From IMG/VR virus record IMGVR_UViG_2585427765_000017: DNA of 36,151 nt; one strand, written 5' to 3'. The notes beneath the pieces are model-generated. The model was not told the DNA's origin. It ran no database searches and saw only the letters and a list, made by a program, of their open reading frames with translations. This document shows positions 1,419-17,838 of this stretch, piece after piece. Within the stretch, counting starts at the first letter, position 1, and the number at the start of each line of letters is the position of its first letter. A program made the position numbers and the translations under genes. The stretch is from a virus (lineage: Duplodnaviria; Heunggongvirae; Uroviricota; Caudoviricetes).

Positions 1419-3890
1419 TTAAAAATCAGCCTGATTCGGAATCAGTTTTTGCCAGATAGCTGAAACGTATTTTGCCTGGTAACGGGCGTCATCAAGTGCA
1501 TTATGGCGCTCACCTTCGAATGGAATAGCCGTTCTGGCATCGAAGTCTATGGCTTTCCCCAGCTCAACGATTGTGCGTACATCGCGATCGTTGTAGTAAC
1601 GCCACGGGCAGGGGATCCCCTGCCGTTCGTATGAACGGCGCAAAATCGTGTTGTCGAAGTTGGCTCCATTTCCCCAGACCTGAACAAAAAATTCACCGGA
1701 GTTTTCGTCGATAAATTCCCGCAATTGTAACAGTGCATCATCTAACGGGATTTCATCGGTCATAATGGCAGATTGCGCTTCGCGTGATTGCTTAAGCCAC
1801 CATTTAATGGTGTCCCGATCAATGACTCCGCCAGCAGTTTCCAGATCGATAGTCTTACTAAATTCCGGTCCCATATCTCCGGTTTGCGGATCGAAAAATA
1901 TTGCACCTATTGAGATAATCGGGGCATCAGGATTTTTTCCCATGGTTTCAAGGTCGATCATTAGATGGTCACACGTCCTACTGGCGGATGTGATTTCGTG
2001 ATGACCGTTCACCTTAATTGAGTGATCTGCCGTCTCGCCAGTTTCATTATCGCTATTGTGATGCTGATTGCCGCCAGTGTTCTTCTTGTTTGGATGTTCA
2101 GCGCCTTCCATTTCCTCCGGATCATCTTCCTGAACTTCAACCTGATACTCTTCATCGAATGTTTCCTGGTATGTTGCGTCGCCCATCACCGCGCCACAAT
2201 CAGGGCAGTTGCCGCCGCCGGTCTGACCGCAGGCGGTGCAGATCTTTTCCGGTTCCTGTTGCACTACTGGTTCAGGTTGTTTCGTTTCTTGCTCGTTTTG
2301 TAACGCATTTGGGCTGTTTTGTTCCGCTTTCTGGCCGTTCTGTTCCGTTTCTTGCTGGTTCTGGTTCACAGAATCGCGGGTTTCCATCCCCTTCACCCAT
2401 TTCGGATCATTCGGATCGCTAATTCCTACAACAAATTCACCACGTGATACTGCAAGCAGTTCATCGGCGTCAGGCTGGCTGATATTGGCTGCCTGCATAA
2501 TGTTGTTTACTTCGTCAGCGGTAACTTTTACCGGCCCTGGTTGTGCGGTCGTGTCAGATGCACCAGTATTTTGTTGTGAACCTGAGTATGTACTGTTTTT
2601 GCGGACGAAATATTCTTCTTTCGTGATTTCAGTAGCCCCGGCAGCCAGTGCCTTATCCAGACCAGAAAGTTTGTTTGCGCGACCGTATTTTTCACCATCC
2701 TTGTCGGTGAAGAGGAAGTAGAACGGCCCCTCACGCTCTACAGATGGTTCGACTTCCACTTTGCATTCGGTTTTTTCGTTGTCCGGAATTGCCGTTTCCA
2801 CTGCATCAGTTTCTGGTACTGGCGACGAGAGAGTATCAGTTGCGATCTGATTTGTTCCTTCATCTTCAAACACGCCCTTTGTAGTCAGGTATTCAGTAAT
2901 GTATTTGTTCAGTGCCACAGGGTCTTTGTGAATGTCGATCGGACGCTCACGGACAAGGCCAAAAATAGTCTGGCGGTCGTAGCGAAGGGCATCAGGCTGT
3001 TTGCGCATTGATGCTGAGATACGCTTCCAGTCTTCGCGGTCGTTGTTGATAACTTCATTTTTTGCCCAGCGATGGATGCTGCCGTCAATGTTTCCGGCAT
3101 CAATGTCACCAGGCCACAGAGCGTAGGCCAGTTCATCATCCAGTGTTTTCCATGTCTGCTTATATTCGCGACGAATGACTGCAGTGACAGGGGGGATATT
3201 TTCTGCTGAGTTTTCAGTGTGCTGTCGGTTGACTCTGGCGCGGGCGAGATCAACAGCAGACGTGTATTTTCCGGTTTCCTTGCGTTCACCTTCGCGACGT
3301 TTTTTCCAGATGCGCATCTCTGCCTGAATTTCGGGCCATTTAGCTCCAGGCTTACATTTATGCTTAACCCACCCGATGGCATGCAACTTAAGTTCTGGAT
3401 ACATGGCGTTAACTTCTGGCATTTTCATCAACGCTTCAACGATATGTCCGTCGAATGTTGCCATGTCTTCCTGCAACAGTTCCTGTGCACTAATCACCAT
3501 ATCAACGGTGATGTTTTCACATGTGTCGAACTTAACCATGACAGCGTTCTGTACTTCAGGGGCCAGCTTGTCAAAAGTGACGTTCATCGGATCTGATTCA
3601 GTCTCAACCGGGACAAAGGAAGCTGACTCCTCATCCCAGCGGTTTTCCTGCATATATTCAGCATCCCAAGAATCGAGGGCAGGGCGGGGTATACCGGGTT
3701 TATCCTCGCAAACAAGAAATTTATAAGCGCAGTCCTGAGCAGCCGGATATTGCTCCAGGAATTGCCAGGTAAATTTGGCACGGGCGCGGCGTTCGTCGCC
3801 AGCTTCAATGGCAGTGGCTACAGCGACTGCACCTTCTTCCTTTATTGCCTGTTCGTCCGGAATAGCGGCGCAAATAAAGACTTTACTCAT
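1419..3890 (-). CDS. Large putative exonuclease (823 aa) with C-terminal DnaQ-like DEDDh 3'-5' exonuclease domain and a central Cys4 zinc ribbon
   Basis: C-terminal motifs read in translation: LMIDLETMG (Exo I), VWGNGANFD (Exo II), HNALDDARY (Exo III); CTACGQ...CPDCG zinc ribbon mid-protein; occupies the exo/recombination position of the early-left operon. Confidence 0.65.
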   Translation of the reverse strand: MSKVFICAAIPDEQAIKEEGAVAVATAIEAGDERRARAKFTWQFLEQYPAAQDCAYKFLVCEDKPGIPRPALDSWDAEYMQENRWDEESASFVPVETESDPMNVTFDKLAPEVQNAVMVKFDTCENITVDMVISAQELLQEDMATFDGHIVEALMKMPEVNAMYPELKLHAIGWVKHKCKPGAKWPEIQAEMRIWKKRREGERKETGKYTSAVDLARARVNRQHTENSAENIPPVTAVIRREYKQTWKTLDDELAYALWPGDIDAGNIDGSIHRWAKNEVINNDREDWKRISASMRKQPDALRYDRQTIFGLVRERPIDIHKDPVALNKYITEYLTTKGVFEDEGTNQIATDTLSSPVPETDAVETAIPDNEKTECKVEVEPSVEREGPFYFLFTDKDGEKYGRANKLSGLDKALAAGATEITKEEYFVRKNSTYSGSQQNTGASDTTAQPGPVKVTADEVNNIMQAANISQPDADELLAVSRGEFVVGISDPNDPKWVKGMETRDSVNQNQQETEQNGQKAEQNSPNALQNEQETKQPEPVVQQEPEKICTACGQTGGGNCPDCGAVMGDATYQETFDEEYQVEVQEDDPEEMEGAEHPNKKNTGGNQHHNSDNETGETADHSIKVNGHHEITSASRTCDHLMIDLETMGKNPDAPIISIGAIFFDPQTGDMGPEFSKTIDLETAGGVIDRDTIKWWLKQSREAQSAIMTDEIPLDDALLQLREFIDENSGEFFVQVWGNGANFDNTILRRSYERQGIPCPWRYYNDRDVRTIVELGKAIDFDARTAIPFEGERHNALDDARYQAKYVSAIWQKLIPNQADF

Positions 3891-3969: not shown

Positions 3970-4173
3970 TTACGGCGCTGTTTTAAGTCCTGCCGGGATT
4001 TCGTTATTATCCATGTGAATAACTTTATCGACCGGATAGCAGTTACCGGGAATTTTTTGTTCTGCTGCGGCAGCTATGCATTCTTTCATTGAACCGTAAA
4101 TGTTAATAACCATGTCAACAGGCTCGCCAGTATTAAGAAAAACAGTCAGAGTGAGGGCAATAGCAGTATTCAT
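3970..4173 (-). CDS. ydfD: YdfD-like small membrane protein (internal Met start of the 85-aa track ORF)
   Basis: Translation MNTAIALTLTVFLNTGEPVD... has a hydrophobic N-terminus; start codon overlaps dicB stop (ATGA), as in the Qin dicB-ydfD arrangement. Homology from memory. Confidence 0.5.
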   Translation of the reverse strand: MNTAIALTLTVFLNTGEPVDMVINIYGSMKECIAAAAEQKIPGNCYPVDKVIHMDNNEIPAGLKTAP

Positions 4174-4358
4174 TGCCAGTATCCTTTTTGCATCGGGCGT
4201 AAACGGGCCAGCATTGAAAGAATGCATATTTTATTTAATAGCTCCCGTTCGTATTTTCTCTTATTAATGGCATCTTCAGTAAATACAGGGTTACTGATTC
4301 TGACACCAATTTCAAAACAACCTTCAGACGTATTGACGTTTGGTAATAACGTTTCCAT
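4170..4358 (-). CDS. dicB: Cell division inhibitor DicB (62 aa)
   Basis: Internal-Met product METLLPNVNTSEGCFEIGVRISNPVFTEDAINKRKYERELLNKICILSMLARLRPMQKGYWQ is near-identical in length and sequence to E. coli Qin DicB as I recall it; the track ORF 4170..4454 extends upstream of the true start. Confidence 0.8.
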   Translation of the reverse strand: METLLPNVNTSEGCFEIGVRISNPVFTEDAINKRKYERELLNKICILSMLARLRPMQKGYWQ

Positions 4359-4540
4359 TATCGCGTCCTCAACAATGAATTTTGTGATGCGGCGCCTGGT
4401 GCCTCCAGGTGACGTTAACCAGTTAACAATTAACGCCGGATACAGAGAACCCACCCATAAGAACCAATACGGAAGTCAACTGGTCTTTTTAACTGTTCCG
4501 CGTGCGCTGAGCCGCATTCACCGCATCACAAAATTCACTT

Positions 4541-4605
4541 TAAAAAGGGCGGGTATCACAAGGGAAAACAAAAAACGGATACCCGCCAAAAGGTAATCAG
4601 CATGG
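4541..4605 (-). ncRNA. dicF: DicF-like small RNA candidate ending in an intrinsic terminator (approximate coordinates)
   Basis: Minus-strand reads ...CAUGCUGAUUACCUUUUGGCGGGUAUCCG...GUGAUACCCGCCCUUUUUAAAGUG: GGCGGGUAUC/GAUACCCGCC stem followed by a U-run, directly upstream of dicB where dicF lies in Qin. Resemblance to DicF (UUUGGCGGUAUC...GCCGCCC) is from memory. Confidence 0.4.
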
Positions 4606-4927
4606 GTTGTTGCAGCGGAGTTGTCACTTAAGCGTATGGTCAACCTGACAACCCGGTGCTCCACAGGGGAGGGAGAATAGTCCCCCTGCCATACTTACCG
4701 CCGCGCCATTTCGCGGATTGCCACAACCGGAAGCGTACGGTCGAATTAAATTTAACGACAAGCCTCATAGGTGAAGGCCTTCGCCGTACGCTTTCGTGTT
4801 ATGCCCTGACTTTTCAGGGATATATCCTTTCAGTAAACTGTCAGTGCCGGATGCTCACCCGTGTCCGGCGCACGCACTCCACCTCACCCGTGGAGAACTC
4901 CTTAATTACCAACCCTCAGGAGGGTGA

Positions 4928-5161
4928 ATGTTAAAATCAACTCTTATTGCTAAATGCCTTTATCAAAATCGCATGGTAAGCAGCATTTCAATAGGCGAGT
5001 CTGCAGTTAAAAGTATTTTCGAAGAGTACTTTTCCGGGCATGATTTTAATAAATGGAATACTAAATTACCGCCAGCAGTTTCAACGCGTATTCTGAAAGC
5101 AACTGAAAGAGCAAGTACAATTCGCGTTAACTATTTCATTAAAGATTTGTGGGATCTTTGA
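4928..5161 (+). CDS. Hypothetical 77-aa protein, opposite in orientation to the surrounding leftward operon
   Basis: Strong RBS (CTCAGGAGGGTGA) directly before the ATG; AT-rich coding; 3' end overlaps the convergent 135-aa gene by about 23 nt. No family recognised. Confidence 0.35.
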   Translation: MLKSTLIAKCLYQNRMVSSISIGESAVKSIFEEYFSGHDFNKWNTKLPPAVSTRILKATERASTIRVNYFIKDLWDL

Positions 5162-5546
5162 TATCCACAGAGCCTAAAGTATGTGCATATGGATGTGCTA
5201 TTGTGCGCCCCTGTAAATTTGCATCGTTTTCTAAATCTTTTGATTTCAACAGAACATCAGCAAGACTCTGAATCATGCAGAGATAATCAAAAGCAGTTGC
5301 CGTTTCTGTTCTGATTGCTGAAATAACATGACCATTCAGGCAAACAGAAATTACCCGTTCATCAATATCGTTTTCCTGTTTTTGATTATCAGAACCATAT
5401 AGCCCTGAAAAAGCATTGCGCACATTACGAACCATATTATCGATGGTTTCTTTTTTGGTGTATGCCGGGTCAATTTTCACCAGACTATCACCGAGTGTCG
5501 TTGCAGCAATTATCTGGATTTCTTTTGGTAAATCTTTAAATTCCAT
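5139..5546 (-). CDS. Hypothetical 135-aa protein between ydfC-like gene and the DicF-like region
   Basis: Clean ORF with ATG start in the leftward early operon; no recognisable motif; absent from the Qin dicB operon as I remember it. Confidence 0.45.
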   Translation of the reverse strand: MEFKDLPKEIQIIAATTLGDSLVKIDPAYTKKETIDNMVRNVRNAFSGLYGSDNQKQENDIDERVISVCLNGHVISAIRTETATAFDYLCMIQSLADVLLKSKDLENDANLQGRTIAHPYAHTLGSVDIKDPTNL

Positions 5547-5568
5547 TATTAGCCTCGTTGGTTAGCCA

Positions 5569-5787
5569 TTAACGTGGGTATGTAATCATTCTGGCAATGC
5601 TTAATGCCGCTGCTTTTTCCAGATTGGTGATATCCTGCTCCAGAGCGGACAGATTTTCAGCTTGCTTAGCCCTGGCTTCATTGGCCCATTTCAGGTCCTG
5701 CGCAGCCTTAATTTTCTGGTGCATCCACTCATAAAGTTCATCATCGGTATAGTCTGGCGCGATGATGACGGGTTCTCGTTTCTGCAT
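5569..5787 (-). CDS. ydfC: YdfC-like protein (72 aa)
   Basis: 72-aa coiled-coil-like ORF (MQKREPVIIAPDYTDDELYEW...) with GAGGAA RBS, in the ydfA-ydfB-ydfC synteny of the Qin dicB operon. Confidence 0.55.
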   Translation of the reverse strand: MQKREPVIIAPDYTDDELYEWMHQKIKAAQDLKWANEARAKQAENLSALEQDITNLEKAAALSIARMITYPR

Positions 5788-6283: not shown

Positions 6284-6350
6284 ACTATAGGAAATGCCTA
6301 ATTACTTGTCAATAGGCTATGCCTAATAATTTGGGCGCAACCTAATAGGT
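6284..6350 (-). promoter_or_regulatory. Leftward early promoter/operator region (PL/OL-like)
   Basis: Minus strand carries TTGACA (about 6307-6312), 17-bp spacer, TATAGT (about 6284-6289). Overlaps the 17-bp operator ATTAGGCATAGCCTATT (inverted, 6311-6327) plus extra GCCTAAT/CCTAATAGG half-sites at about 6296-6302 and 6341-6349. Confidence 0.5.
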
Positions 6351-12918: not shown

Positions 12919-13192
12919 ATTGAAAATATCACCTATGTTATTGTTAGATCGTTTGTGATTTTTTTACCATCACAACAACGACACAAAATCATTAATGCGT
13001 ACGCAAAAATTTTGAATAATGAGTTAATCAATGTCAATAGTTAAACACACTACCGCTGTAGAGTTGTTGTCATTAAATTGCGTCATAAGTAGAATTGCTG
13101 CGGGTGCTTGAGGCTATCTGTCTCAGGCATGAACACCAAAAGGCAGATAGATAAAAGCCCCACCCGACTATAAATCGAAGTGAGGCCCCTAT

Positions 13193-13405
13193 ATGCTCGT
13201 CACATATAGATTGCCTCTTACGGACCGAAAGGTCAAGGAGAAGCAGGCTATGAAGCAGCAAAAGGCGATGTTAATCGCCCTGATCGTCATCTGTTTAACC
13301 GTCATAGTGACGGCACTGGTAACGAGGAAAGACCTCTGCGAGGTACGAATCCGAACCGGCCAGACGGAGGTTGCTGTTTTCGTAGACTACGAATCTAGAG
13401 AGTAA
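13193..13405 (+). CDS. mok: Mok-like overlapping reading frame of the hok locus
   Basis: 70-aa frame that starts upstream of, and terminates with, the hok coding sequence, as in hok/mok/sok loci. Confidence 0.5.
   Translation: MLVTYRLPLTDRKVKEKQAMKQQKAMLIALIVICLTVIVTALVTRKDLCEVRIRTGQTEVAVFVDYESRE
13250..13405 (+). CDS. hok: Hok/Gef-family type I toxin (51 aa)
   Basis: MKQQKAMLIALIVICLTVIVTALVTRKDLCEVRIRTGQTEVAVFVDYESRE is a near-exact Hok-family toxin sequence (HokD/RelF-like from memory). Confidence 0.85.
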   Translation: MKQQKAMLIALIVICLTVIVTALVTRKDLCEVRIRTGQTEVAVFVDYESRE

Positions 13406-17588: not shown

Positions 17589-17664
17589 GGCCCTTTAGCT
17601 CAGTGGTGAGAGCGAGCGACTCATAATCGCCAGGTCGCTGGTTCAAATCCAGCAAGGGCCACCA
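17589..17664 (+). tRNA. ileZ: tRNA-Ile (anticodon CAU, lysidine type; ileX/ileZ-like)
   Basis: GGCCCTTTAGCTCAGTGG...ACTCATAATCG...GGTTCAAATCCAGCAAGGGCCACCA: acceptor GGCCCTT/AAGGGCC, anticodon loop CUCAUAA, encoded CCA; close to E. coli ileX as recalled. Confidence 0.8.
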
Positions 17665-17671
17665 TCACATA

Positions 17672-17748
17672 CCGCCATTAGCTCATCAGGATAGAGCGCC
17701 AGCCTTCGAAGCTGGTTGCGCGGGGTTCGAGTCCTCGATGGCGGTCCA
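17672..17748 (+). tRNA. argN: tRNA-Arg (anticodon UCG)
   Basis: Cloverleaf folded by hand: acceptor CCGCCAT/ATGGCGG, anticodon stem CCAGC/GCTGG with loop CTTCGAA, T-loop TTCGAGT, encoded CCA. C1-G72 start is unusual. Confidence 0.7.
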
Positions 17749-17761
17749 TTATCTGTACCCT

Positions 17762-17838
17762 GCGTTGTTAGCTCAGCCGGACAGAGCAATTGCCTTCTAA
17801 GCAATCGGTCACTGGTTCGAATCCAGTACAACGCGCCA
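17762..17838 (+). tRNA. argO: tRNA-Arg (anticodon UCU)
   Basis: Acceptor GCGTTGT/ACAACGC, anticodon stem ATTGC/GCAAT with loop CTTCTAA, T-loop TTCGAAT, encoded CCA. Confidence 0.8.

Follow-up and report, generated by a model that had tools for sequence, protein, structure and literature searches.

Two convergent genes in an inserted cassette

The window (the whole stretch of 36,151 nt analysed here) belongs to a Qin-like lambdoid prophage of E. coli. In it, a plus-strand gene encoding 77 amino acids and a minus-strand gene encoding 135 amino acids face each other tail to tail (Table 1). Both are genuine genes, and both ORFs are annotated as RefSeq coding sequences for hypothetical proteins (WP_001735122 and WP_001735123) in a 99.9% identical E. 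coli chromosome. A preliminary description of this DNA had put the 3' overlap at about 23 nt and had credited the 77-aa gene with a strong AGGAGGG ribosome-binding site; according to the ORF listing the overlap is exactly 23 nt, and the AGGAGGG motif is followed, 3 nt further on, by the ATG.

The same description had placed the pair between ydfC-like and DicF-like elements and outside the Qin dicB operon, and both statements were borne out. ydfC is the upstream neighbour. The downstream neighbour aligns with the annotated DicF of phage Tritos and includes a terminator-like site (4587-4574); a search of Rfam did not detect DicF at this diverged element and returned no family across the region. 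The pair is absent from Tritos and from Sakai Sp12, both of which show the canonical order ydfA-ydfB-ydfC-dicF-dicB. Tritos has the same flanks without positions 4917-5550 of the window: homology ends at 4916 and restarts at 5551. Among IMG/VR contigs, the gap downstream of ydfC measures 695 nt where the cassette is present versus 61 nt at empty sites.

As in morons, the cassette is a discrete insert separating two genes that are immediate neighbours in related phages (Tritos junctions 4916/4917 and 5550/5551), and its composition differs from that of its neighbours (GC 36.5-39.5% versus 47-55% in the flanks). The site was empty in 38 of 72 closely related ydfC loci, as it is in Sakai Sp12. 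DNA matching the cassette was present in 650 of 5426 complete E. coli genomes (about 12%), O157:H7 included, at 95-100% identity.

Table 1. Features at and around the convergent gene pair (positions in the window)
Feature	Position	Strand	Basis or remark
dicB	4170..4358	-	Pfam DicB, E 3e-37; RefSeq annotation
Diverged DicF-like element with terminator hairpin, downstream neighbour	4545..4600	-	Alignment to annotated Tritos DicF
Conserved ydfC-dicF spacer	4600..4916		Alignment; kept in cassette-less phages too
Inserted cassette, 634 bp (both genes and the ribosome-binding site of the 77-aa gene)	4917..5550		Alignment versus Tritos; spacing; GC
Shine-Dalgarno AGGAGGG of 77-aa gene	4918..4924	+	Sequence
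77-aa gene	4928..5161	+	ATG-start ORF in ORF listing; RefSeq CDS
3' overlap, coding both ways (C-terminal ends ...FIKDLWDL and ...IKDPTNL)	5139..5161	both	Sequence and ORF listing
135-aa gene	5139..5546	-	ATG-start ORF in ORF listing; RefSeq CDS; homologues
Core domain, residues 58-135 of 135-aa protein	5139..5375	-	Homologous to stand-alone ~78-aa partner (phrog_23433) of other genera
N-terminal ~55-aa 'MEFKDLP' domain	5379..5546	-	Common to alternative long genes at the site (124, 179, 201, 208/212 aa)
Shine-Dalgarno GAGG of 135-aa gene	5553..5556	-	In flank just beyond insert; GAAG there in Tritos
ydfC, upstream neighbour	5569..5787	-	ORF listing; RefSeq annotation; homology
Promoter-like TTGACA-17-TATAGT (11/12 matches)	6284..6312	-	Between repressor gene and ydfA-like gene

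Conservation of the pair across genera

Homology and structure searches with both proteins, as proposed in the preliminary description, recovered wide families for both genes and no function from any library. Searches of Pfam, NCBIfam, PADLOC and PHROGs gave only families of 'unknown function' (phrog_10348 for the 77-aa gene and phrog_1363 for the 135-aa gene), those of the PDB by sequence and by profile gave nothing informative, and the sole Foldseek match in BFVD was an uncharacterised member of the same family. Literature searches on the gene names, the protein accessions and the concept found nothing about these proteins and turned up neither transcriptome nor phenotype data. Neither protein has a membrane segment (maximal Kyte-Doolittle 19-residue means 0.59 and 1.18) or a DNA- or RNA-binding signature, and no DNA-binding antitoxin fold was found.

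Homologues of the 77-aa protein formed 33 clusters from many Enterobacterales genera, nearly all about 77 aa long after allowing for misplaced starts, and a profile search extended the family to 163 clusters at 50% identity. The gene showed dN/dS values of 0.15-0.38; the E. coli copies differ by few substitutions, mostly synonymous, with dN/dS of 0.13-0.8 calculated from very few changes. According to its AF2 model (pLDDT 96.5), the product is a soluble five-helix protein.

The 135-aa protein was modelled with a pLDDT of 68.6 overall. Its core shares 36-41% identity with partner genes of Serratia, Klebsiella and Dickeya, belongs to a family of 74 clusters by profile search, and is predicted by AF2 to fold into a beta-hairpin and two helices (pLDDT 74-87). 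Judged from these alignments, the 135-aa gene is a fusion of the N-terminal domain to the ~78-aa core, a feature that had escaped the preliminary description.

Among the loci fetched with the 77-aa gene, 92 of 96 also had a convergent homologue of the minus-strand gene, far more than expected by chance, and in 91 of these 92, from several genera, the overlap was 23 nt (26 nt in the exception, L091). In Serratia, Klebsiella, Dickeya, Proteus, Photorhabdus and one GC-rich phage, the small gene faces a ~78-aa gene homologous to the core. Orientation and pairing persist down to about 35-40% identity, and in the GC-rich phage the overlap is 38 nt. In the loci sampled, the partner core was always accompanied by an opposing small gene; homologues of the 77-aa protein also occur singly, including next to terminase genes. 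The pair is an old conserved unit across genera, which had likewise gone unnoticed.

As deduced from sequence, the repressor-controlled early-left promoter (PL) of Klebsiella and Serratia prophages has the partner as its first gene. In one Klebsiella locus, the interval from cI to the partner contains OL operators (14-mers identical to those of OR) and a TTGACC-18-TATTAT promoter, and a terminator-like site follows shortly past the small gene's start; one Serratia locus has a PL-like site as well. At a further locus (L134), the pair is located behind a Cro-like gene. We considered that the partner, as first PL gene, could be an N-like antiterminator and rejected this: the protein has an acidic to neutral character, a predicted fold and no arginine-rich motif, and the cassette is optional.

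Alternative cassettes and expression signals

In E. coli the site is polymorphic and accommodates several alternative long-gene/small-gene cassettes, which the preliminary description had not recorded. The long-gene alleles have the ~55-aa N-terminal domain in common and differ in their C-termini. The combinations found were 135/77, 201/63, 179/80 and 208/69 aa, plus a 124-aa allele without a small gene, so that four of the five long-gene alleles had a distinct opposing small gene. A constant N-terminus with alternative C-termini, each with its own small neighbour, is the arrangement expected of polymorphic toxin-immunity loci; a recognisable toxin or delivery/secretion domain was absent, with zero Pfam or PADLOC domains in any allele.

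The 201-aa allele retains the core domain and lacks the 77-aa gene; thus, the core does not strictly depend on that gene. The ribosome-binding region of the 201/63 allele is the same as that of the 77-aa gene. We also asked whether the 77-aa frame could be a shadow ORF opposite the longer, 201-aa version of the minus-strand gene; this was rejected, since the 201-aa allele has unrelated DNA there and its own 63-aa gene, and since the 77-aa ORF is conserved in its own right, with dN/dS well under 1.

The 63-aa gene and its partner domain constitute a second, unrelated pair, which shows the same architecture beside cI in phages EPP-1 and SfII. A similar location beside cI in named phages was considered for the 80-aa and 69-aa small genes and discarded after tblastn against the phage collection returned zero matches.

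The 135-aa gene is the fourth gene of the leftward early operon. From its sequence and position, the promoter-like element upstream of the ydfA-like gene should be the equivalent of PL/PdicB and should drive ydfA-ydfB-ydfC-135aa-DicF-like-dicB. The preliminary description had noted that the plus-strand gene runs against the leftward transcript and had predicted antisense interference. The gene does oppose the repressor-controlled operon and no terminator separates the two, so that interference may reasonably be expected and the leftward transcript would also be antisense to the small gene. Within 5100-5200, the stretch examined around the overlap, we found no terminator-like site and no stable RNA structure, and a role of the overlap as a bidirectional terminator is not supported.

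In E. coli, a promoter for the 77-aa gene could lie only in the ydfC-dicF spacer upstream, and the plus-strand promoter candidates there are all weak. In the versions outside E. coli, an extended -10-like element, TGGTATCTT, is conserved upstream of the small gene; the E. coli insert is without this native element, its junction lying about 10 nt upstream of the ATG. In the predicted minimum free energy fold of the plus strand (4830-4940), AGGAGGG is base-paired with the ACCCU of the insertion junction (4912-4916), and the Shine-Dalgarno sequence may be sequestered in this hairpin. The spacer hairpins at 4843-4895 are strong on the plus strand only. RefSeq annotates a plus-strand ORF within this spacer in Sakai.

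The 77-aa gene was frameshifted in 3 of 20 E. coli copies, the 135-aa gene being intact in all, and a Photorhabdus locus likewise had a frameshifted small gene next to an intact partner. Intact copies were present in 64 of the 66 E. coli-type loci fetched.

Proposed role and comparison with known systems

We propose, at a probability of roughly 0.45, that temperate enterobacterial phages acquired the region by horizontal transfer as an accessory cassette of two genes, that its ancestral form comprised two convergent ~77-aa genes with a 23-nt overlap, and that the two are cognate and antagonistic, the small gene being expressed in lysogens and the partner in the early lytic phase. The partner would belong to a repressor-controlled early lytic operon, and the small gene, with a promoter-like element of its own, would point against that operon; in the Qin-like version of E. 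coli, the partner would have been fused to the ~55-aa N-terminal domain to give the 135-aa protein. In a lysogen, the repressor would silence the partner and the small gene would be expressed. Upon induction or infection, strong leftward transcription would produce the partner protein, and the transcript, running antisense across the entire small gene, would switch the latter off. The early protein would neutralise the lysogen protein, or vice versa.

Most likely the role is a phage-phage or phage-host conflict function, with superinfection exclusion, defence with a built-in escape and an allele-specific second immunity layer as candidates; a housekeeping role is unlikely. In favour of the proposal are the discrete insertion of foreign composition, the coding and conserved nature of both genes, their strict pairing and orientation across genera, the place of the partner as first gene of PL, the TGGTATCTT element conserved outside E. 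coli, the overlap free of a terminator, the co-varying alleles of E. coli, the second unrelated pair, and the solitary small-gene homologues as opposed to a core always seen with a small gene in the loci sampled. Counting against the antagonistic pair are the frameshifts in the 77-aa gene, the 201-aa allele with the core and no 77-aa gene, the missing TGGTATCTT element, the weak promoter candidates of the spacer, the possibly sequestered Shine-Dalgarno sequence, and the absence of similarity to any defence, exclusion or toxin family, with zero matches of the window pair to PADLOC at E up to 10.

A broader version of the proposal, to which we give little credence, makes the cassette one allele of an undescribed polymorphic 'head-of-PL' module class in temperate enterobacterial phages. 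Small soluble proteins made by the prophage would bind and block the cognate early protein of a superinfecting relative through its variable C-terminal domain, providing a repressor-independent, allele-specific second immunity layer; the antisense PL transcript of the prophage itself would shut the system off on induction, and escape from exclusion would maintain the diversity (77-, 63-, 80- and 69-aa partners; two unrelated families sharing one layout).

The preliminary description had suggested a toxin-antitoxin or superinfection-exclusion function. For the latter, no similarity to known exclusion or defence families emerged, the described systems SieA/SieB, Rex, Cor, BstA and those in PADLOC showing no sequence or profile similarity; among the proteins of the other alleles, searched against PADLOC at E up to 1, only the 63-aa protein gave a match, non-significant, to Csn2 (E 0.014, 12.5 bits). 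A toxin-antitoxin or abortive-infection module, in which one of the two products would be a toxin, with the early partner, for instance, in the role of a kil-like host-takeover factor, and the opposite strand would encode a constitutive antidote, as in pore-forming colicin operons, seems to us improbable. The genes are small, tightly linked and co-varying, an inducible gene faces one with a promoter-like element of its own, polymorphic C-termini accompany different small genes, and the neighbouring DicB and DicF are early functions toxic to the host. However, the genes are convergent with a 3' overlap in all homologous loci instead of forming an operon, and neither a type II toxin or antitoxin family or fold (RelE/ParE, MazF, VapC, HipA; RHH, HTH or AbrB antitoxin) nor a PADLOC match was found. 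A type I (hok/sok-like) system does not fit either, as there is no hydrophobic segment, conserved proteins are encoded on both strands and Rfam gave no hit. The frameshifts of the 77-aa gene leave the 135-aa gene unharmed, which argues against strict dependence on an antidote. The frameshifted Photorhabdus copy with its intact partner, the 201-aa allele and the solitary small genes beside terminase genes likewise count against such a module.

Co-occurrence of the two genes could stem merely from their physical overlap, since overlapping genes are necessarily inherited together. That they are two functionally independent accessory genes, packed compactly and linked with no cognate interaction, is unlikely in our view, even though the pairing is broken in the 201-aa allele and small-gene homologues occur singly: orientation and pairing have outlasted divergence to ~35-40% identity, even with the 38-nt overlap of the GC-rich phage, a second unrelated pair has the same layout in the same genomic niche, and nearly every E. 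coli long-gene allele found (4/5) has its own opposing small gene. We are similarly doubtful that the plus-strand gene is a silent, decaying passenger in E. coli, where only the 135-aa fusion protein would matter. The native promoter-like element lost at the junction, the weak promoter candidates, the Shine-Dalgarno sequence paired in a predicted hairpin and the frameshifted copies would all be accounted for; the abundance of matching DNA in complete E. coli genomes at 95-100% identity, the intact copies in 64/66 loci, the mostly synonymous E. coli substitutions (few as they are) and the upstream spacer, which folds significantly on the plus strand only and has the RefSeq ORF of Sakai on that strand, speak against decay.

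The position immediately after OL/PL in Klebsiella, Serratia, EPP-1 and SfII, and after a Cro-like gene in L134, together with convergent promoters without an intervening terminator, would suit a lysis-lysogeny regulatory element. In such an element, the first early-left protein would promote the lytic programme, and the opposing gene, through its protein and/or a transcript interfering with PL, would buffer leaky PL and stabilise lysogeny; antisense transcripts of lambdoid phages do act at decision points (oop/cII, PRE/cro). Nevertheless, we judge this improbable. The cassette is optional, more than half of the closely related ydfC loci and Sakai Sp12 being without it, and unrelated alleles take its place elsewhere, as would be expected of an accessory function more than of a core regulator, and neither protein has a nucleic acid-binding signature.

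The cassette defines a compact module of about 12% of complete E. coli genomes and of Klebsiella, Serratia, Dickeya and Proteus prophages, among others, all of whose proteins are annotated only as hypothetical. The tail-to-tail overlap, the opposed wiring and the swapped cognate alleles lead to clear and cheaply testable predictions. If the pair acts as effector and anti-effector or as allele-specific immunity, it would represent a new class of prophage conflict module and account for a hypervariable spot of Qin/Rac-like and Stx-associated prophages as well; should the pair be inert, the site still illustrates how phage genes are rebuilt via in-frame domain fusion.

Pore-forming colicin operons consist of an inducible colicin gene and a convergent, constitutive immunity gene. 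They resemble the locus in combining a long gene under repressor control with a small gene beyond it that is read from the other strand and has a promoter (here putative) of its own, in cognate alleles; however, their immunity proteins are membrane-bound and colicins are exported toxins, whereas nothing is secreted here. The polymorphic toxin-immunity loci CdiA-CT/CdiI and Rhs-CT/RhsI also combine a constant N-terminal part with variable C-terminal parts and a different small neighbour per variant. Compared to these, the proteins here are only 124-212 aa long, without secretion/delivery or a recognisable toxin domain, and the small gene is convergent and overlapping instead of downstream on the same strand. 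In P22 sieB/esc, an exclusion protein expressed in the lysogen is coupled with the phage's own escape product. The logic would be similar: a prophage function harmful to lytic growth of the phage itself is paired with an early phage-encoded antidote. esc lies in frame inside sieB, without a change of strand, and SieB resides in the membrane, whereas the present locus has two unrelated proteins on opposite strands. Type II toxin-antitoxin systems share with it two small neighbouring genes on a mobile element; the pair here is convergent and separable, with no family match and no DNA-binding antitoxin.

With lambda oop/cII and BTP1 STnc6030 the locus would share convergent transcription over the 3' end of a lytic or decision gene, here predicted from the ends of the ORFs, which overlap by 23 nt with no terminator between; the antisense partner differs in being a conserved protein-coding gene under purifying selection. 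STnc6030 is an antisense RNA expressed by the prophage that excludes the same phage type (PMC7067206). Exclusion/defence genes such as rexAB and bstA come from the repressor-adjacent interval of temperate phages. Morons are known to occupy the cI-N interval, and genes antisense to lytic genes are usually expressed in lysogens (PMC7067206). The moron loci lambda rexAB, BTP1 bstA and lambda/P22 sieB resemble the present one in being optional, discrete insertions of foreign composition in the mosaic interval heading the early-left region, with one gene oriented or wired for possible prophage expression (PMC7067206). They share no sequence or fold similarity with the proteins described here, which are small and soluble and not membrane proteins, and the unit here is a convergent overlapping pair with one member in the lytic operon.

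The convergent pair and its coding potential

The window matches the E. coli ATCC 43886 chromosome at 99.9% identity; this lambdoid prophage is integrated there beside potC. RefSeq gives the minus-strand order as HTH repressor, DUF1391 (ydfA-like), ydfB, ydfC, a hypothetical gene (the 135-aa gene), a gap, dicB, DUF1482, exonuclease, excisionase and integrase, with the 77-aa ORF (the small gene) as a hypothetical CDS on the opposite strand; Pfam confirmed DicB, DUF1391 and DUF1482. The preliminary description of the 77-aa/135-aa pair proved accurate in coordinates and content: each stop codon lies inside the opposite gene, and GAGG stands 6 nt ahead of the 135-aa gene ATG on the minus strand. 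Because of this gene order and a strong promoter-like site behind the repressor gene, the 135-aa gene would by its position rank fourth in the leftward early operon next to the repressor.

DicF was not detected in the window by Rfam, even at E up to 10. The annotated DicF of Tritos, a phage with the same flanks, aligned to an element that retains the terminator hairpin but differs in its 5' part, so that the earlier label "DicF-like" is fair for a diverged element. It may act on targets other than those of DicF.

Features of the window and of compared loci (L-numbers)
Feature	Position	Strand	Basis or remark
77-codon ORF, ATG start	4928-5161	+	ORF listing
135-codon ORF, ATG start	5139-5546	-	ORF listing
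Overlap, 135/77 pair	5139-5161		ORF listing; 23 nt
Overlap, 201/63 pair	L016 4584-4606		exactly 23 nt; sequence unrelated to that of 135/77
AGGAGGG, 3 nt ahead of 77-aa gene ATG	4918-4924	+	sequence
TTGACA-17-TATAGT, between repressor gene and ydfA-like gene	6312-6284	-	consensus match
CTGAAA/CTGAGA-17-TACAAT, 3' part of 77-aa gene	5093-5121; Serratia L005 5166-5194	+	promoter-like match, equivalent place
DicF-like element	~4545-4600	-	alignment with Tritos DicF
Match to Salmonella sRNA STnc100, just upstream of dicB	4381-4535	-	weak, sub-threshold Rfam match; 29 bits, E 3e-4
54-aa ORF ECs_5735 in spacer, Sakai Sp12	L127 10469-10633	+	RefSeq
Window equivalent of ECs_5735	4656-4934	+	TAA overlaps 77-aa gene ATG region
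sok antitoxin RNA (109 bits) and three tRNA genes, elsewhere in prophage	13102-13252; 17589-17835	+	
68-aa ORF between SfII_36 and cI, unannotated	L289 (SfII, KC736978) 2154-2360	-	convergence and C-terminal motif

Both ORFs are genes. For the 77-aa protein, 33 clusters of homologues were found, almost all about 77 aa long after allowing for misplaced starts; they come from Klebsiella, Raoultella, Serratia, Dickeya, Xenorhabdus, Yersinia, Morganella and Salmonella, at 53-71% identity. Against 1.8 billion representatives, a profile search returned 163 clusters, nearly all of 74-80 aa. Outside the overlap, dN/dS against other genera was 0.15-0.38, with synonymous sites near saturation, and AlphaFold2 gave a five-helix model (mean pLDDT 96.5). 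The 135-aa protein matched phrog_1363 and has 51 homologue clusters; its model is confident at residues 62-130 only (a beta-hairpin and two helices, pLDDT 74-87). No membrane segment was found in either sequence.

Since the relatives of the 135-aa protein are mostly 201 aa in length, the 77-aa ORF could be suspected of being the shadow of a longer minus-strand gene. DNA alignment with the 201-aa allele excluded this: the allele is identical to the window to codon ~128, continues as unrelated DNA that carries a 63-aa opposing gene of its own, and rejoins the window exactly at the common ribosome-binding site CCTCAGGAGGGTGAA. One public source calls the 77-aa protein of O157:H7 (P0292) a "dGTP triphosphohydrolase", an unsupported name that looks like an annotation error. 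The promoter-like match inside the small gene may be only a by-product of conserved TIRV codons.

The pair across genera

Prophages of Serratia, Klebsiella and Dickeya carry the 77-aa gene convergent with a 77-79-aa gene, with the identical 23-nt overlap; this partner is 36-41% identical to residues 58-135 of the 135-aa protein (the core). Proteus likewise has a convergent, core-homologous partner. A convergent partner-family gene was present in 92 of the 96 fetched loci carrying the small gene, and the overlap was 23 nt in 91 and 26 nt in one. Of the four exceptions, three were loci with frameshifted copies and the fourth was a distant homologue standing alone; one further match was truncated by a contig end. 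Of three Photorhabdus loci, one has a frameshifted small gene and two have it intact. Loci fetched via the partner had overlaps of 23 or 26 nt and lacked the 77-aa gene only in the 201-aa allele. Among the loci sampled the partner was never seen without an opposing small gene. In a GC-rich phage (L134), a homologue of the small gene shares 41% identity with the distant-family query and converges, with a 38-nt overlap, on a partner-family gene (E 7e-11) just downstream of a Cro-like HTH gene. Distant homologues of the 77-aa protein stand alone, with no partner, in a Psychrosphaera chromosome (L015) and in two GC-rich IMG/VR phages (L129, L132), where they adjoin genes for HNH endonuclease and small terminase (Terminase_4). 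The convergent pair is an old unit.

In a Klebsiella locus (L007), three 14-mers of the ACAG-N6-CTGT type lie between cI and cro; two more (ACAGATAAAACTGT, ACAGTAAAAACTGT) and a leftward promoter match, TTGACC-18-TATTAT, are located in the interval from the cI end to the partner gene. A Serratia locus (L005) shows the equivalent of this promoter-like match, again leftward, as well as a terminator-like site past cI. By these elements, the partner is the first gene behind OL/PL. As L007 also has a minus-strand terminator-like site just past the small-gene start, its shortest leftward transcript would comprise the partner ORF and the complete antisense of the small gene. Small genes outside E. 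coli have in common an upstream GGTGGTATCTTGG (extended -10-like TGnTATCTT) and a CTTGG...CCAAG hairpin ahead of the Shine-Dalgarno sequence. These elements are consensus matches and conserved sequences, not proof of activity.

Insertion and alleles in E. coli

Homology between Tritos and the window ends at 4916 and restarts at 5551, ydfC in Tritos being followed directly by the spacer, and the ydfC-dicF site of Sakai prophage Sp12 is empty. The GC content of the insert is 36.5-39.5%, versus 47-55% in the flanks. The pair had been described as inserted, and these comparisons bear this out as a discrete foreign insertion. Among 72 usable IMG/VR contigs picked by their YdfC protein, and hence unbiased as to the cassette, the site was empty in 38, occupied by the 124-aa gene in 12, by the 135/77 pair in 20 and by the 201/63 pair in two. 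Small-gene DNA was found in 650 of 5426 complete E. coli genomes, O157:H7 among them, as well as in 12 phage entries on deposit, namely phage Evi and the PPompW prophages from Stx strains.

Long-gene alleles and their small genes
Long gene	Small gene	Overlap
135 aa	77 aa (phrog_10348)	23 nt
201 aa	63 aa (phrog_2605)	23 nt
179 aa	80 aa (phrog_10133)	20 nt
208 aa (212 in a relative)	69 aa (phrog_4274)	abutting
124 aa	none	n/a

In E. coli the core is fused in frame to an N-terminal domain of ~55 aa (MEFKDLP...), which is common to all five long-gene alleles and also heads other proteins at the ydfC-dicF site and in Stx phages. Elsewhere the core is joined to a C4 zinc finger of the ClpX type (PF06689, E 6e-9; Citrobacter P0139-P0141, P0116) or, in one E. 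coli variant (P0034), to the N-terminal part of YdfC; it is a module tolerating various N-terminal fusions. The equal overlaps of 135/77 and 201/63 may reflect chance or constraint.

The left junction lies ~10 nt upstream of the 77-aa ATG, so the native promoter-like element is gone in E. coli, and in the conserved spacer upstream the plus-strand promoter candidates are all weak. The predicted fold of 4830-4940 as plus-strand RNA is unusually stable (-37.1 kcal/mol, z -3.76, versus z +0.37 for the minus strand) and pairs the Shine-Dalgarno sequence of the small gene. In the unbiased sample the small gene was frameshifted in 3 of 20 copies, whereas the 135-aa gene was intact in all 20. In E. 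coli the small gene may therefore be either expressed or silent. The plus-strand fold and the spacer ORF annotated on that strand in Sakai Sp12 hint at an undescribed transcript opposing the dicB operon, in prophages without the cassette as well.

Homologues of the 63-aa protein occur in two phages, EPP-1 of Edwardsiella and SfII of Shigella. In EPP-1 the gene is convergent with a 121-aa gene adjoining a LexA-like repressor and overlaps it by 33 nt; in SfII (SfII_36) it is convergent with the 68-aa ORF beside cI, and the overlap is 39 nt. Since the C-terminus of the EPP-1 121-aa protein shares 45% identity (E 2e-12) with residues 147-201 of the 201-aa protein, the latter reads as the N-terminal domain, the core (partner of the 77-aa gene) and an extension (partner of the 63-aa gene), and this allele retains only the second small gene. 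The SfII ORF is probably a missed gene, because by eye it has the same C-terminal motif. The two unrelated pairs share one niche and one architecture and are swapped as cassettes.

Proposed function and alternatives

The cassette is a conserved, mobile, convergent two-gene unit with cognate allelic variation. Its partner belongs to a repressor-controlled early operon, first behind PL in the native context; the small gene, with its conserved promoter-like element, opposes that operon, no terminator lies between the two, and the layout evolved in parallel in an unrelated pair. We favor, at a probability of roughly 45%, an antagonistic pair. In the lysogen the small gene would be expressed and the partner produced only upon derepression; the leftward transcript would then silence the small gene via collision or antisense pairing, and the two proteins would be mutually antagonistic. 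Precedents make this plausible: accessory genes are known to occupy the cI-N interval, genes that lie antisense to lytic ones are expressed from the prophage, and prophage antisense RNA can exclude phage of its own type (PMC7067206). Because the small protein occurs alone and the partner was never seen without an opposing small gene, we favor the former as effector and the latter as its modulator, although orphan immunity genes would yield an identical pattern.

Two independent genes that are simply neighbors, with solitary copies on one side and the near-constant pairing on the other, are an unlikely account. It is similarly doubtful that the plus-strand gene is silent in E. coli, a reading compatible with the others. 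A toxin-antitoxin-like module, as guessed at the outset, seems quite improbable: for type II, neither gene organization nor family fits and, indirectly, disruption of the small gene leaves the partner intact. Type I was rejected, there being no hydrophobic peptide and both strands encoding conserved proteins. A lysis-lysogeny regulator, for which the place beside the repressor might speak, is just as improbable. The other early suggestion, superinfection exclusion, finds no match among known exclusion proteins, which are membrane proteins or have PADLOC models; neither is true of the pair.

Both genes were already annotated, only as hypothetical proteins or "unknown function" PHROGs. The literature searched yielded no paper on the 77-aa, 135-aa or allele proteins, and the sources searched hold no description of the pair's conserved convergence, of the fusion by which the 135-aa gene arose, of the ydfC-dicF site polymorphism or of the second family with the same architecture. 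The working proposed for the pair, with roles that we infer, is directly testable. Among known systems, the cassette is best filed with the phage accessory (moron) cassettes at the head of the early-left operon.
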